Assembly (NCBI GenBank): GCA_014905635.1
Contig: JABVCE010000020.1
Location: 310,001-374,000 of the forward strand
Direction of reading: 5' to 3'
Source of the DNA: Scenedesmus sp. PABB004
Taxonomy: Eukaryota
Length of the DNA stretch: 64,000 bases
A program made the position numbers and the translations under genes. This document shows positions 41,261 to 64,000 of the stretch, one piece after another (position 1 is the stretch's first letter; each line of letters begins with the position of its first letter). The notes below the pieces were generated by a model, which searched no databases, was not told the origin of the DNA, and worked only from the letters and a program-made list of their open reading frames with translations.

Positions 41261-44200
41261 TCACACGACGTCCAGGAACATGCACACGCCCGCGAGCACC
41301 CACTTGTTGGGCGGCGCCTTGGTCTTGAGCTGCGCGGTGAACACCTCCTCCCTGAAGCGCGCCTCGGTCGTGTAGACGGGGCACGCGTACGCGTCGCGCG
41401 CCTCCTTGTCCGCCGTGACCGCGCGCACGTGCACGACCGGCATCGGGCAGAAGAGCTCCTTGGGCCGCGAGTCGTCGAGCGCGCCGGCCTTGTCGTCCCA
41501 GCGCGCGCCCTCGAGCGTGAGGCCCGTGATGTACGCGCCGTCCCTGGGCGCGGGGGGCGCGGCGGCAGGGGTGGAGGCGAGGCGAAGGGAGGCGAGGGGC
41601 GAGGGCGCGGGGCGGCGTGTGACACTCGGCGCCGGCGCCGCGCCCTGCGGCAGGGGTTCGCCGGCCGCAGCCGCAGCGCGCGCGCACACAGAAACACACA
41701 CGCACCGCGAGGGCGCGTCGATCTGGTCGGGCGTCTTCTTGGTGACCTCGGTGAGCAGCACCGTCTTGTCGAGCGGCCAGTCGTTGCGGCGCGCGGTCGT
41801 CTGCATGACGGCGGTCAGGAAGCTCTGCGGGTTGAACAGCCCGCTCAGCCACACGACCTTGGGCAGCGCCATGTCGGCGCCCCACTCGGACAGTTGCGCG
41901 CAGCGCGCGAGCAGGTTGACGAGCCAGCTCCCGAGCGGGCGCAGCGAGGGGTACGCGAGGCGGCGCCACGAGGGCGGCACCGCGTCGGTCGCGAGCGCGT
42001 GCATGAGCCGCTCCATGGGCTCCGACATCGTGAGGTCGCCCTTGAGCCCCAGGTCCAGCTCCACCAGCGAGCGCTTCATCTCCGACAGCAGCACGTTCAT
42101 GCGCTCCGCCTCCTGCGGACACCGGCGGCAGGGCGCGGCGGCGGGGTTGGGTCAGCGCGCGCTCGGCACGCCGCGTGGCACAGCACACAGCGCAGCACGC
42201 AGCAGCGGCAGCGCGCGCGCGCCGGCGCGCGCAAACAACAGCGAAACAACGTGCCTGGATGGCGACCATGACGTAGGGCGTGACCTCCTCGGCGCGGCCG
42301 CGCAGGTCGTCCATGTCGTAGAGGTCGGGCAGGCGGTCGGCGAGGTCGTCCAGCACCATCTTGGCCCGCTCCTCAACGCTCAGCCCGCCCTCGCCTGGGG
42401 GTTGGGGCGGCGCCGGGCGCGGGCGCGGGAGGGCAGGTTGGGAGGGCAGGGGGAGGCGGGCAGCAGCCGGCACGCGGGCGATGGAGCCGGGCCAGCCGCG
42501 CGCTGCGCGCCGCGCTGCGCACCGCCGCTCTCGCGCGGCTGCAGCTGCACGAGCGCGCCGCAGAAGCTCTCCGCCTCGCGCAGCTTGAACCCGATCTCCG
42601 CGTTGGGGTGCAGCCCAAACGCGAGCGGCGTCTCGGGCGGCATCGCCTCCTCAATGTACTCCAGCACCTGCGCCGCCGCGGGTCGGCTGCCACGACCCCG
42701 GCCCCAGAGGGAAGGCCTGCCGCCCCGTGCCCCGCGCGCCGCGCGCCGCAGCCGCCGCGCGACACCGCGCGCCGCAGCCGCCGCGCCGTGCCCCCCGCCC
42801 CGCGCGCGCGCCTGCTTGTGCGTCGCATTGTTGGGCGGCGGCGCAAAGCCTGGGTAGAGCTCCGCGCCCTCCATGAGGCCCTCGTGGATGGCGCCCGCCA
42901 GGTACGCGGCCGCGAGGCGGCGGTCCCAGTCCTCCACGATGTGCCCGCCGTACATGATCTCGCCAAACACGTAGCGCAGGTCGTCCCACGGCACCTGCGC
43001 GCGCCGCGCCAGGGCCGCGCGGCGGCGGGAGGAGGAGGCGGCGGGTCGCGTGAGCGGGGCGGCGGGCGCCGGGCCCTGCTGCCGGCGCGCCCCCAAGCCC
43101 GCGCCCGCGCCGGCGCGCCAGCCTGCCCTCGTCGCCCGCCGCGCCGCCCCGCCCCGGCCGCACCTTGACGTTGTTGTCCAGGTAGTTGGCCGCGCACTGC
43201 CCGCAGCAGAGCAGGTCGCCCGTGGTGAAGGGGTACGACATGTTCCAGCCGATGCCGCTCGTCGCGCCGGGCAGGTTGCCGACGCCAAACTTCTTGCGCT
43301 CGAGCAGCGCGGCGTGGAAGTAGCAGAGTGCAAAGACGATGCTCCGGAACTCAGCCTGGCGGCCGCGGCGCGGCGGCGGACGCGGCGGTGGTGGAGCGGA
43401 GCAGGGCGCGGCGTGGGACGGGGCGCGGGGCGGGGGGCGGCGGCCAGCGCGCCCCCGGCGTCCCAGCGCCGCGCGGCGGCGCGCGCCTGCTTGGAGCAGC
43501 CCTCCAGCATCTCCTCGCTGAACTGCGAGACCGCGCGGCGCAGGTTGGGGCGCAGGCCCTCGGGCGGCTCGTTGGTGAGCTTGACCGAGTTCTGCAGCAG
43601 GCTCACGGGCAGCCCGCGCTCGAGCGCCGGCGGCGGCTCCGCCGACAGGAACAGCCTGCGCGCGCGGCGGCGCGCGGCGAGCGGGCGTGCGGCGTCGGCG
43701 TGCGCTGCGCCGCGCTGCGCCGCAGCGCGCGCCGCCGCAGCGCGTGCTGACGCCGCGCGCCCGCGCACCTGAAGTCTGGGTGCGCGCCCTCGGCGAGCTT
43801 GTCCACGCGCTTCTCGAGCGGCCCGCTGGTCCAGTCGATCGTGAGGTGCACGTTCTGCAGCAGCACCCAGCCGCCGTTCTTGTGCGCATGCGCGAGCGCG
43901 GCCATCGCGATCGGCTCCTGGCCCTGCCCCAGGCTGACCGACGTGTAGCGGCCGCCCTCGGCCGTGAAGCCCAGCTTCGCGCCCAGCGACTCCACCGACG
44001 CCGCCTGGGCGCGCGGCGGCGCCGGCGGCGGCGGCGCGGCGCGCGGTCAGCAGTCGCCGGCAGCAGCAGGCGGCAGGCGCGGTCGGCCGCGGCCGCGGCC
44101 AGCCGCGGCGGTGGCGTGCGCCCAACCCAAATCAAACAGCGCCGGCCGCGCCGGCCGCGCACCACGTCGACGCCGGGGCTGAGGAACACAAAGATCGGCG

Positions 44201-62200: not shown

Positions 62201-64000
62201 ACTTGCTCGCCCACGTGGCGAGGCTGGTCTTGAGCGGCTTGGCGCTCACGCGGATGAACCCGACCACGCCGCTCGCCGGCAGCGCAGCAATCTCGGCGCC
62301 CACTGCCCTGCGCGCGCGCGCGGGAGGAGAAGGGGGAGCGAGGGGGCGTGGGGCGCCGGGCATGGGGCGTGGCGCGTGCGCTGCCGCAGGTAGGCGGCGC
62401 GTGCAGCGGCACACAGCTCCCGCCGTGGTCCAAGCACACGGCCTGGCTCACTTGTACTTTTGGATCGCCTCCTCAAACTTGGCCAGCGGCGGGTCCTCGC
62501 GCGACCCGTCGGGCGCCGTCGTGGCCTCGGCCTCCAGGAAGGCCTGTGCGCGGGGCCGCGGCAGCGCGGCGGCTCAGGCGCAGGGCGGCAGCTGGCCGGC
62601 GCAGCCAGCCAGCCGCGCCCGCCGCCGCGCGGCGGCAGCGCCCCGCCGCGCGCGCCCTGCGCGCACCGCGAGCGCGGCGCCGAGGTCCTGGCGCCAGAGG
62701 TAGTCGTAGCGCGCAAACTTCGCCTTGAACTCCTCGCACGCCGCGACGTTGGCCAGCGTGACGCTGAGCACCTGCGGCGCGCGGCACGGCAGAGGCAGCG
62801 TGGGGCAGCGCAGGCACTGCCGTCGGCTGAGGGCGCGGGCGGCCGGATGGCGTGCAGCCGGCCGCCGCCGCCGCCGGCACCGCCGCCGCTGCGCTGCTGC
62901 CGCGGCCCCGGCCCCGCGCGCACCCGGTCGAGCTGCTCCGCGACGTCGTAGTCCTCCTCCAGCTCCTTGGCGTAGCTGCCCTCCCCCGTGTCGAGGCGCT
63001 TGACGAGCCCCCCGACCTCCAGCAGCGACACAAGCCAGCGCTGCACCAGCGCCGTCAGGCTGCCCTTGTCGCCGCCCGCGAGCTCGGGCCGCCACGCCAT
63101 CTCCGGCCCCGCGAGCTCCAGCTCCACCTCCAGCAGCGGCCCCGCGCCGGACCTGCGGGGCGCATGCGCCGCGCCGCGCCGCAGCGTGGTTAGCGAGCGG
63201 CTGGGGCGGCGCTCAGCCGCCCGGGCGCCCCGGCGCGCGGCGCCTGCCCACGCTCGCGCGCGCGCGCGCGCCTGGCGAGGGCGTCGGGGTCGAGCTGCTG
63301 CAGCAGGTAGCGCGTGGACGCGGTGATCGCGGCGCCGTAGCCGGCGACCACGATGTCGCTCACGTAGTCGACGTACGCCCGCCAGCACGGCGAGCCCTTG
63401 CTGACCTGGGGCGCGAGCAGGCGGCGACGGCGTGGGCGAGGCTCGGACAGGCGCGGGCAGGCGACGGGCAGGGCACGCACAGCGTGCGGCGCGCAGCGGC
63501 GCGGCGCCGCGCGGGGCGGCCTGCCAGGCGGCGGCGGCGGCGGCTGCGCGCTGCGCGCCTTGAGCACGCGGTTGCTGGCGGACAGGTGCTTGCCGATCTC
63601 GCGCCCCGCGTCGCGCATCTCGGCGTGGCGCTGCGCGATGAGCGCGGCGCTCGCGTCGCGCAGCTCCTCGTACGTGTACACGCGCCCCTCCTGCGCGCGG
63701 CGGCGCGGGCTATGGGTCAGCGCGGCCGGCGCGGCCAGCGCAGCCAGGCGCACGCGGCGTGCCGCGCCGCGCCGCGCCTTGCGTTCAAACATCAGCGCGC
63801 GCTCAAAGCCGCGCAGGATGTCGACCGTCGTCGCGACGTTGGCGCGGATGGTGGAGAGCACCACGTCCAGGTCGCGCACGAGCTCGAGCGTGTCCCGGAT
63901 GTACGGGTCGATGCCCTCGCTGCGCCAAGCGAGCTCCTCCAGCCCCCGCTGCAGCGCCGCCTCTGCGCGGCGGCAGCGCGGTCGCTTGTGAGCAGCACGT
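41261..64000 (-). CDS. ODA4: Axonemal outer-arm dynein beta heavy chain (about 70 exons in window; 5' part lies beyond the right edge)
   Basis: Spliced exons give the tail/linker ('MRERHW', '[14 protein letters not shown]') and four P-loops: AAA1 'GPAG|TGKT' with 'CFDEFNRI', AAA2 'GPAGCGKT', AAA3 'GNTGTGKT', AAA4 'GVGGSGKQ'. Stalk/MTBD '[15 protein letters not shown]', AAA5 '[15 protein letters not shown]', AAA6 'SLGQGQE...[11 protein letters not shown]'. '[25 protein letters not shown]' and the C-terminus '[15 protein letters not shown]...[14 protein letters not shown]' resemble Chlamydomonas beta HC as recalled; the paralogue assignment needs a phylogeny. Confidence 0.9.
45621..45710. repeat. 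Intronic GC-only tandem repeat of about 8-bp units (GGCGCGGC)
   Basis: Repeated ggcgcggc units inside a dynein intron. Confidence 0.75.
46256..46369. ncRNA. Intronic foldback element 1 (candidate pre-miRNA or MITE-like hairpin)
   Basis: Arms pair along their length: gcgctgg/ccagcgc, ggccttgcggg/cccgcatggcc, aggccag/ctggcct, gagcggtccgga/tccggaccgctc. Lies in dynein intron 46106-46642. Confidence 0.55.
46434..46544. ncRNA. Intronic foldback element 2 (candidate pre-miRNA or MITE-like hairpin)
   Basis: gccttgcggg/cccgcaaggc, caggccaggg/ccctggcctg, cggt/accg, agctcaagcg/cgtttgagct around a very short loop. The left arm is nearly identical to that of element 1. Confidence 0.55.
48040..48217. 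repeat. (CA)n microsatellite with CACC-interrupted flank, in a dynein intron
   Basis: Long AC dinucleotide run at about 48111-48208, preceded by imperfect CA/CACC units. Confidence 0.95.
56105..56210. ncRNA. Intronic foldback element 3 (same family as elements 1 and 2)
   Basis: ctggagggccttgcaggc/gcctgcaaggccctccag (18-bp perfect), aggccaggggtc/gacccctggcct (12-bp perfect), tcggccatc/gatggtcga, loop tggac. Lies in dynein intron 55951-56268. Confidence 0.55.
58512..58652. repeat. (GCGCA)n pentanucleotide repeat with GCGCAA/GCGAA variants, in a dynein intron
   Basis: Tandem gcgca units followed by variant units. Confidence 0.9.
62080..62142. repeat. 9-bp intronic tandem repeat (GCGTGCTGT)
   Basis: Several gcgtgctgt units within a dynein intron. 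Confidence 0.75.

Follow-up and report, generated by a model that had tools for sequence, protein, structure and literature searches.

In the 64-kb window analyzed here (the whole stretch of 64,000 nt from the green alga Scenedesmus sp. PABB004; contig JABVCE010000020.1, positions 310,001 to 374,000), the 3′ part of a dynein heavy chain gene is interrupted by 69 introns, of which 39 are GT-AG and 30 (43%) are GC-AG. All 30 GC donors share a single pattern, [C/A]AG|GC[G/A]CG, so that each of them follows an exon ending in AG. The original prediction, made from the sequence of the window, had put these numbers at about 69 introns, 39 GT and 30 GC, and the homology-only alignment returned just these values; the four introns that it quoted as examples (42113-42254, 42668-42811, 43356-43486, and 55951-56268) are all present in our model with the quoted donors. 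We consider it very likely that these are U2-type introns of a green alga under pressure toward high G+C content (hereafter GC content), in which the T at intron position +2 has drifted to C where the rest of the 5′ splice site pairs well enough with the U1 small nuclear RNA (U1).

The dynein gene and its intron-free orthologue

The dynein gene occupies positions 41261..64000 of the minus strand, from its stop codon (41261-41263 in the list of open reading frames) to the end of the window, and its 3′ part comprises 70 exons. The portion in the window encodes ~3800 C-terminal residues, and the window ends before the part that codes for the N-terminal ~750 residues. Pfam domains succeed one another along the minus strand from the linker DHC_N2 (from ~61 kb) to the AAA lids and the C-terminal domain, and all four P-loops, AAA1 to AAA4, are present in the translation. 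The best PDB match of the exon at 59567-59959 is 7kzm_B, the "Flagellar outer dynein arm heavy chain beta" of the Chlamydomonas outer-arm dynein (OAD beta, E = 2e-53), followed by human DNAH9 and DNAH17 (1e-28 to 1e-29) and the alpha and gamma chains (1e-11 to 1e-18). The named database matches of the gene belong to the green lineage (Tetraselmis, Chlamydomonas euryale, Helicosporidium, and Chara). By its domain order and its closest similarity to beta chains, the gene is classified as that of the axonemal outer-arm dynein beta heavy chain (ODA4 / DNAH9-11-17 type).

The gene model was obtained with a purpose-written protein-to-genome dynamic-programming aligner (BLOSUM62, affine gaps, introns in all three phases), which requires an AG acceptor, charges one flat penalty for any donor dinucleotide on a preset list, and is blind to splice-site context. 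With GT and GC donors allowed, 14 reference proteins (one full-length dynein of 4553 residues, the others fragments of 899-2325 residues) yielded the majority model of 39 GT-AG and 30 GC-AG introns. One intron of this model, 54000-53853, was found with only one of two references and was added by hand; it was later recovered with the intron-free guide described below. The spliced coding sequence (63969..41264, 11415 nt) is open over 3805 codons in frame 0, with no stops, whereas the other two frames contain 68 and 28 stops.

Earlier reference sets, consisting of fragments or of full-length dyneins with ~40% identity, were superseded by an intron-free orthologue as the guide. One exon of the gene, used as the query against metagenome contigs, matched 65 loci, among them L004, a 13.9-kb contig of 65% GC with an uninterrupted open reading frame of 4555 codons, for which gene prediction was not involved. 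Guided by L004 and with the 16 possible donor dinucleotides weighted equally, the aligner placed 69 introns (30 GC, 38 GT, and 1 CG), 67 of which are identical to those of the model. In the other two, the boundary is displaced by 5-6 nt; one moves from a GC donor to another GC donor, and the other leaves the protein as it is with the GT-AG choice. The spliced product of the window matches residues 752 to 4554 of the L004 frame with 73.9% identity over 3813 columns, including 18 gap columns. The alignment is gap-free within 10 residues of the junction at 29 of 30 GC junctions and at all 38 GT junctions, and on average 14.8 (GC) and 15.8 (GT) of the 20 residues around a junction are identical.

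These data bear on the idea that the gene is a decaying pseudogene, or that the GC segments are retained in the transcript, so that the splice sites would not be under selection. Reading through an intron is often without penalty, as 57 of the 69 introns contain no in-frame stop and 17 of those are also multiples of three; retention would thus often escape nonsense surveillance and add low-complexity stretches of Ala, Arg, Gly, and Pro. We nevertheless give this idea next to no credence, in view of the single open frame across 70 exons, the 74% identity to the orthologue with all four P-loops visible, the perfectly kept donor and acceptor motifs, and the difference in GC content between third codon positions (97%) and introns (85%).

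Donor context and placement of the boundaries

The donor pentamers are GCGCG (28) and GCACG (2) in the GC class (n = 30), and GTGCG (32), GTGAG (4), and three others in the GT class (n = 39), in agreement with the earlier description of the former as mostly AG|GCGCG with a few GCACG and of the latter as mostly GTGCG. At the GC donors, position -3 is C in 22 cases and A in 8, position +3 is G in 28 and A in 2, and the remaining positions are invariant (A at -2, G at -1, C at +4, and G at +5). The GT donors have G at -1 in 37 cases, G at +3 in 38, C at +4 in 33, and G at +5 in all 39. The acceptor is CAG in all 69 introns, and their 3′ ends bear C-rich tracts with loose CTGAC, CTCAC, or CTAAC motifs. 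The median intron size is 144 nt for the GT class and 145 nt for the GC class. Judged by their sequences, the GC introns belong to the U2-type GC-AG class, with a GC start, an AG end, and the same G, C, and G at +3 to +5 as in the GT class. The U12-type signature ([A/G]TATCCTT donor) is absent, since T at +4 and ATCC at +3 to +6 occur in none of the 69 donors.

The choice between the two classes follows the end of the exon. Exons ending in AG are followed by 30 GC and 11 GT donors, whereas all other exons are followed by 28 GT donors and no GC donor (Fisher p = 1.8e-10); both the strict dependence on exonic AG and the ratio of about 30 to 11 had been claimed in the original prediction. Reportedly, the consensus flanking GC-AG introns at large is stronger than that of GT introns. 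On the sense strand of the gene, the motif AG|GC[GA]CG occurs at 35 of 4576 GC dinucleotides (0.76%), and 30 of these 35 sites are donors. Five sites are not used as donors; one abuts an acceptor, and the other four, all with G at -3, are the exonic GAG|GCGCG sites at 61220, 51521, 41401, and 41362 (minus strand). Position -3 may decide between exon and donor. Exon 8 (61506-62008, minus strand, 503 nt) contains a low-complexity insert rich in Gly, Ala, Asp, and Glu, part of which was spliced out via non-consensus sites with several references; it was kept whole because no donor motif is found inside it, the nearest unused site being that at 61220 in the next exon. In general, splice signals are very uniform in this intron-dense gene (one intron per ~55 codons), with G at +5 in 69, G at +3 in 66, and C at +4 in 63 of the 69 introns; this apparent strength is owed partly to the 85% GC background.

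The GC-AG introns, all on the minus strand, are listed here from the window end toward the stop codon with their donors; unless noted otherwise, they are in phase 0 and were found both in the model, i.e., the homology-only spliced alignment, and in the L004-guided run with 16 donors. The first of them are 63691..63777 (cgcaag|GCGCGG), 63406..63558 (ctcaag|GCGCGC), and 63153..63271 (phase 2, cgccag|GCGCGC), for which the L004 guide placed the donor 6 nt downstream at 63265, likewise GC. They are followed by 62009..62171 (ctgcag|GCGCGC), 60233..60353 (phase 2, ctgcag|GCGCGC), 59960..60105 (ctgcag|GCGCGC), and four introns for which the individual references were counted in addition to L004, namely 59393..59566 (ctgcag|GCGCGC, 9/9 references), 59096..59212 (accaag|GCGCGG, 7/9), 58835..58958 (phase 2, ccgcag|GCGCGC, 8/8), and 58052..58159 (tgccag|GCGCGC, 8/8). 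At 57350..57467 (phase 2, gtgcag|GCGCGC), a GT lies 6 nt upstream, and its use would remove two residues conserved in L004. Further introns are 56744..56929 (tcaaag|GCGCGT), 56413..56590 (gacaag|GCGCGG), 55951..56268 (gccaag|GCGCGT), 54145..54270 (aaccag|GCGCGC), 53853..54000 (gacaag|GCGCGT; the hand-added intron mentioned above), 53051..53186 (ctgcag|GCGCGC), 51663..51823 (ctgcag|GCGCGC), 51348..51488 (atgcag|GCGCGC), 50411..50541 (gagcag|GCGCGG), 50093..50251 (aacaag|GCGCGG), and 49627..49778 (caccag|GCGCGG). At 48633..48739 (gtgcag|GCGCGG), a GT 6 nt upstream would remove the conserved residues VQ. The remaining introns are 47889..48226 (tatcag|GCACGC), 46901..47064 (ctccag|GCGCGC), 45594..45874 (gcgcag|GCGCGC), 44900..45065 (gcccag|GCGCGC), 43356..43486 (aagcag|GCGCGC), 42668..42811 (aagcag|GCGCGC), and 42113..42254 (atccag|GCACGT).

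Since a GC dinucleotide is always near a true boundary in DNA of 78% GC, the GC calls might be artefacts, the real donors being neighboring GT sites. GC is indeed the commonest dinucleotide on the gene strand (4577), followed by CG (4088), CC (2502), and GG (2039), all four far commoner than GT (888). A codon log-odds ab initio parse restricted to GT and GC over-calls GC (47/70), and forcing true GT introns onto GC donors is cheap, at a median cost of about 14 score units and down to 1 unit in the tail region. We nonetheless judge this explanation highly improbable. With all 16 donor dinucleotides admitted, the L004 control picks GC or GT in 68 of 69 introns, and the same preference was seen with six individual references, i.e., P0011 (17 GT, 11 GC, and 0 other; n = 28), P0077 (19, 13, and 1; n = 33), P0271 (19, 16, and 3; n = 38), P0273 (13, 15, and 3; n = 31), P0267 (10, 10, and 2; n = 22), and P0119 (8, 11, and 3; n = 22). 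The score lost under a GT-only alignment amounts to 421 units for P0011 (over 11 GC introns), 427 for P0077, 521 for P0271, 511 for P0273, 267 for P0267 (275 relative to the 16-donor run), and 265 for P0119 (284 relative to the 16-donor run). Such an alignment swaps the GC introns for donors that lengthen or shorten the product by 2 to 48 residues, or it runs through the intron. GT alternatives require insertions or deletions relative to the intron-free orthologue; for none of the 30 GC introns does a shifted boundary that leaves the mRNA identical turn out to be G[TC]-AG. Finally, all 30 GC donors stand in a context found at 0.76% of GC dinucleotides.

The ab initio parse located the introns but not their donors. 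With any donor dinucleotide allowed, 64-65 of the 69 acceptors were exact under three intron penalties, and 20 of the 69 donors were exact. The version restricted to GT and GC dinucleotides, with 41/69 introns exact, was rejected for donor counting on account of its over-calling of GC. A motif-class parser, with codon log-odds trained on the dynein exons and introns and with donors limited to motif classes plus decoys, recovered 62-63 of the 69 introns exactly and used decoys 0-1 times.

GC content and the proposed replacement of T at position +2

The GC content of the window is 78% (71-83% across 2-kb bins). The dynein introns consist of 84.8% GC and 6% A, with C/(C+T) = 0.832, and the exons of 68.8% GC, whereas third codon positions reach 96.8% G+C with 0.9% A. 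We scored each donor by the number of positions, out of 9, that agree with the canonical CAG|GTRAGT consensus recognized by U1. The mean number of matches is 5.87 for GC donors, 5.68 for GT donors without exonic AG, and 6.73 for GT donors after AG. Thus, the loss at +2 is offset by the two exonic bases, and the total of a GC site stands at the level of a typical GT site, which supports the earlier proposal that exonic AG compensates. By phase, 26 GC introns are in phase 0, 4 in phase 2, and none in phase 1; the lack of phase-1 GC introns is in line with the 97% GC content of third codon positions, because an exon ending in ..A|G in that phase needs a codon ending in A. After exonic AG, C is found at +2 in 30 of 41 introns (73%), compared with the intronic C/(C+T) of 0.832 (binomial p = 0.094). 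As this difference is not significant, we infer that T and C at +2 are nearly neutral in this context.

Donors were also compared along a gradient of GC content. Ten related loci were aligned to the L004 reading frame with all 16 donors allowed, the noise being 0 to 8 donors per locus that are neither GT nor GC. The numbers of GC donors among introns are 2/50 at 41.7% GC (L048), 0/33 at 49.6% (L058), 3/41 at 50.7% (L043), 0/28 at 55.4% (L026), 0/16 at 55.9% (L028), 6/83 at 61.0% (L049), 3/34 at 62.3% (L005), 21/36 at 69.7% (L057), 37/66 at 72.0% (L056), and 34/60 at 72.6% (L051). Hence the share of GC donors is 0-9% in loci of up to 62% GC and 56-58% in loci of 70-73% GC. At shared intron positions, defined by the same residue and phase, the GC donors of the window stand opposite GT in 8 of 9 cases in L005 (62% GC) and in 8 of 8 cases in L043 (51% GC). 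The shared pairs of the window and L056 comprise 7 GC/GC, 3 GC/GT, 2 GT/GC, and 2 GT/GT. The close relatives L056 and L051 have 53 intron positions in common, 2 of which differ in the choice of GT or GC, and L051, L056, and L057, which share most of their intron positions, probably represent one lineage. The composition of the introns, the GT state of the shared introns in loci of lower GC content, and the climb of the GC-donor share with locus GC content all speak for the earlier suggestion that extreme GC pressure lies behind the change of T to C at +2.

The same introns could have arisen in a lineage with an altered spliceosome, in which, for example, a change in U1C, in the U6 ACAGA box, or in the U1 base facing +2 or +4 lets GC be recognized as well as GT; the original prediction had named altered U1, U5, or U6 snRNA (small nuclear RNA) or U1C as a possibility. 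At +4, the donor core G[T/C]GCG of 63 of the 69 introns does deviate from GTRAGT, and the same idea was raised for the GTGCGTG donors of Ostreococcus (Irimia and Roy, 2008; PMC2483917). However, all 30 GC donors need [C/A]AG, while 28 of the 39 GT donors do without AG; that GC needs this context and GT does not argues that C at +2 is still a mismatch (C-A), as a normal U1 predicts. In addition, the U1 5′ end is reported to be canonical, AUACUUACCUG, in Aureococcus anophagefferens and Micromonas pusilla despite their 40 and 22% GC-AG introns (Iwata and Gotoh, 2011; PMC3033335). In view of the context rule and this precedent, an altered spliceosome seems to us rather improbable, and the introns are probably recognized by an unaltered U1. 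An Rfam scan of the 64-kb window gave no hits, snRNA genes included.

A further possibility is that the GC donors were brought in by a repetitive introner-type element, such as the D-IE1 elements of M. pusilla CCMP1545. The introns are uniform in size, an all-against-all blastn search found 594 intron pairs (47 after shuffling), and intron turnover must be high, as 14 of the 66 positions of L056 are common with the window. Yet the best matches between introns, among the 69 of this one gene, cover 56-136 nt at 74-86% identity with bit scores of at most 68, join GT and GC introns alike, and resemble the simple repeats (CCG)n and (GC)n; a full-length, high-identity intron family was not found among the 69 dynein introns. 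Old shared positions that are GT in the relatives and GC in the window point to a point change rather than an insertion, and we regard the introner origin as extremely improbable.

The most likely course, drift of +2 under GC pressure, would run as follows. In nuclear DNA under extreme GC pressure, with mutation bias or biased gene conversion as the presumed driver, T at +2 would change to C at sites with CAG or AAG at the exon end and G-C-G at +3 to +5 of the intron. In this [C/A]AG context T or C at +2 would be nearly neutral, and the share of C would approach the intronic C/(C+T), whereas selection would keep GT after exons not ending in AG. A bolder version, which we think unlikely, holds that +2 is neutral whenever the exon ends in [C/A]AG, that mutation bias alone sets the ratio of GT to GC, and that the threshold lies at ~5-6 U1-pairing positions. 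Together with the relatives at 56-58%, this would be the most GC-donor-rich splicing known in green plants, perhaps with relaxed or altered recognition by U1, U6, U1C, or Prp8 in which C at +4 is likewise accepted.

Several points weigh against the drift of +2 as we describe it. As L051, L056, and L057 are likely one lineage, about two independent lineages stand behind the high-GC end of the trend. In L056 and L051, 30 of 37 and 29 of 34 GC donors, respectively, follow AG, and 7 and 5 do not, which may reflect a less strict AG rule in these loci or errors in those calls. The share of 43% comes from one gene, and the predictions for neighboring genes suggest that the genome-wide value may be nearer 20%. 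The use of exactly these bonds in RNA, and removal of the introns rather than their retention, are predicted from collinearity of the spliced product with the intron-free orthologue. Homology resolves a junction only to a few residues; switching to the other donor class costs a median of ~14 to 25 units per intron, and the lowest forcing cost is 1-3 units for a few introns of the tail region. The argument therefore leans on the donor context, which the aligner does not see, and on the 16-donor control.

Comparison with other genomes and further features of the window

Since 2011, GC-rich algae with very high shares of GC-AG introns have been described in the literature, and this gene adds another case; the novelty implied in the original prediction was thus overstated. 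Among 2.46 million introns, 1.3% are GC-AG overall, with 39.6% in A. anophagefferens, 22.2% in M. pusilla, and 7.7% in a Chlorella, and high shares are tied to G+C content (Iwata and Gotoh, 2011; PMC3033335). For M. pusilla CCMP1545, 25.6% GC-AG introns were reported, with 79% of GC donors in D-IE1 introns (van Baren et al., 2016; PMC4815162). As far as these accounts go, Aureococcus and M. pusilla resemble the window in that very GC-rich algae have 22-40% GC-AG introns, the G+C content is blamed, and the first gene models missed introns. They differ from it in GC content (66-70%, compared with 78% in the window). M. pusilla has about one intron per gene, unlike the window gene with one per 55 codons, and its GC donors lie mostly in introner elements, whereas no such family was found among the introns of the window gene; the share in the window is that of one gene and not of a genome.

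In Emiliania huxleyi, 56-61% of donors are GC in curated and RNA-based sets supported by reverse-transcription PCR, expressed sequence tags, and RNA sequencing; the shift was attributed to a genomic GC content of 65%, the acceptor is still AG, and GT-biased models were wrong (Feldmesser et al., 2014; PMC4028052). The window gene is alike in having GC as a major donor with an AG acceptor and in the explanation by GC content. However, E. huxleyi is a haptophyte with RNA-verified donors, whereas the evidence from the window is comparative and concerns a green alga, and in the material at hand the exonic AG rule is noted only for the window. Pelagophytes were predicted to have ~14-17% GC-AG introns in high-GC species compared with 0.32% in a lower-GC relative, again ascribed to GC content (bioRxiv 10.1101/2024.10.30.620910); they share the link to GC content with the window but, on that account, have a lower share and intron-poor genomes and are stramenopiles. 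In the green alga Ostreococcus lucimarinus, GTGCGTG donors were described, and a strong 5′ consensus was tied to intron-poor genomes (Irimia and Roy, 2008; PMC2483917). The GTGCG core recurs in the window (32/39 GT donors GTGCG, 28/30 GC donors GCGCG), whereas the reported Ostreococcus case concerns GT donors in an intron-poor context and the window gene is intron-dense with 43% GC donors. Ordinary animal and plant GC-AG introns likewise have C at +2 and use the major spliceosome, but the frequency in the window gene is roughly thirty-fold higher and its context rule is all-or-none. A report on a green alga of this GC content was not found in a limited literature search.

A very GC-rich, intron-dense green alga thereby joins the short list of lineages with GC-AG as a major intron class. 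The gene amounts to a natural experiment on the pairing required at a 5′ splice site, with C at +2 in 30/41 AG sites and in 0/28 non-AG sites, and with the unused exonic look-alike sites set apart at -3. In practice, gene finders that are limited to GT or biased toward it will presumably fragment genes in this alga and its GC-rich relatives; the earlier expectation that standard predictors mis-annotate this genome gains support by analogy, as a GT-only toy predictor obtained 34/69 introns exactly and the first models of E. huxleyi and M. pusilla failed likewise. A public "hypothetical protein" of 123 residues from a relative (P0002) is an orthologue of one dynein exon (64 residues; window 43020-43400, minus strand) with run-on past both ends, and it looks like a fragment model from a mis-annotated dynein gene.

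The orthologous dynein is intron-free in L004, L011, L023, and L007 (metagenome contigs of 60-65% GC with single reading frames of 4504-4555 codons) and has 34-83 introns in other loci, with the 14 of 66 coincident positions noted above for L056 and the 69 introns of the window. These comparisons indicate a very high rate of intron gain or loss among these green algae.

The 39 GT-AG introns, found in the model and with L004, lie within 41544..62923 on the minus strand. In the same order as above, they are 62772-62923, 62544-62666, 62308-62451, 61363-61505, 60965-61109, 60697-60841, 60494-60621, 58367-58665, 57793-57900, 57560-57694, 57040-57215, 55583-55767, 55196-55410, 54822-55082, 54385-54713, 53594-53735, 53326-53462, 52835-52985, 52653-52776, 52389-52562, 51947-52169, 51082-51171, 50640-50959, 49945-50030, 49312-49440, 49085-49212, 48844-48972, 48443-48566, 47575-47717, 47344-47457, 46106-46642, 45253-45396, 44614-44757, 44390-44484, 44005-44162, 43656-43768, 42995-43163, 42395-42522, and 41544-41705.

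Elsewhere in the window, Pfam matches mark a class 3 lipase (~160-1700, plus strand), two subtilases (2600-5800 and 25900-28400, minus), a RING finger gene (7240-7614, minus), a TrAA12-like gene with EGF domains (13500-18400, plus), an LRR protein (22200-24900, plus), an FtsJ/TRM7-like methyltransferase (29440-31050, plus), an alpha/beta hydrolase (31380-32600, minus), and a COP1-like gene with RING and WD40 domains (33580-36970, plus). The COP1-like gene is the sole neighbor with usable references, and three of its introns were trusted; a full census of its donors was set aside, as the references are too divergent and the 16-donor run with P0385 gave dinucleotides other than GT and GC at 7 of 11 donors. 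One GC-AG intron of this gene, at 35975..36085 (plus strand, gtcaag|GCGCGC), was obtained with both P0382 and P0385 with all 16 donors allowed, and the ab initio parse agrees. GC donors thus occur outside the dynein gene as well, although the predictions for the other neighbors are weak. For these, the parse was run region by region, since unrestricted local parsing chained adjacent genes. In 13 other regions, the motif-class parse predicted 58 introns, comprising 38 with GT[GA]NG, 10 with AG|GC[GA]CG (of 22 sites), and 10 with decoys (of 287 sites). Predicted GC-AG introns with a [C/A]AG|GCGCG donor, from the ab initio parse only and without homology support, are 214-370, 20118-20202, 29562-29705, and 30659-30775 on the plus strand, and 9515-9664, 27420-27726, and 31715-31937 on the minus strand.

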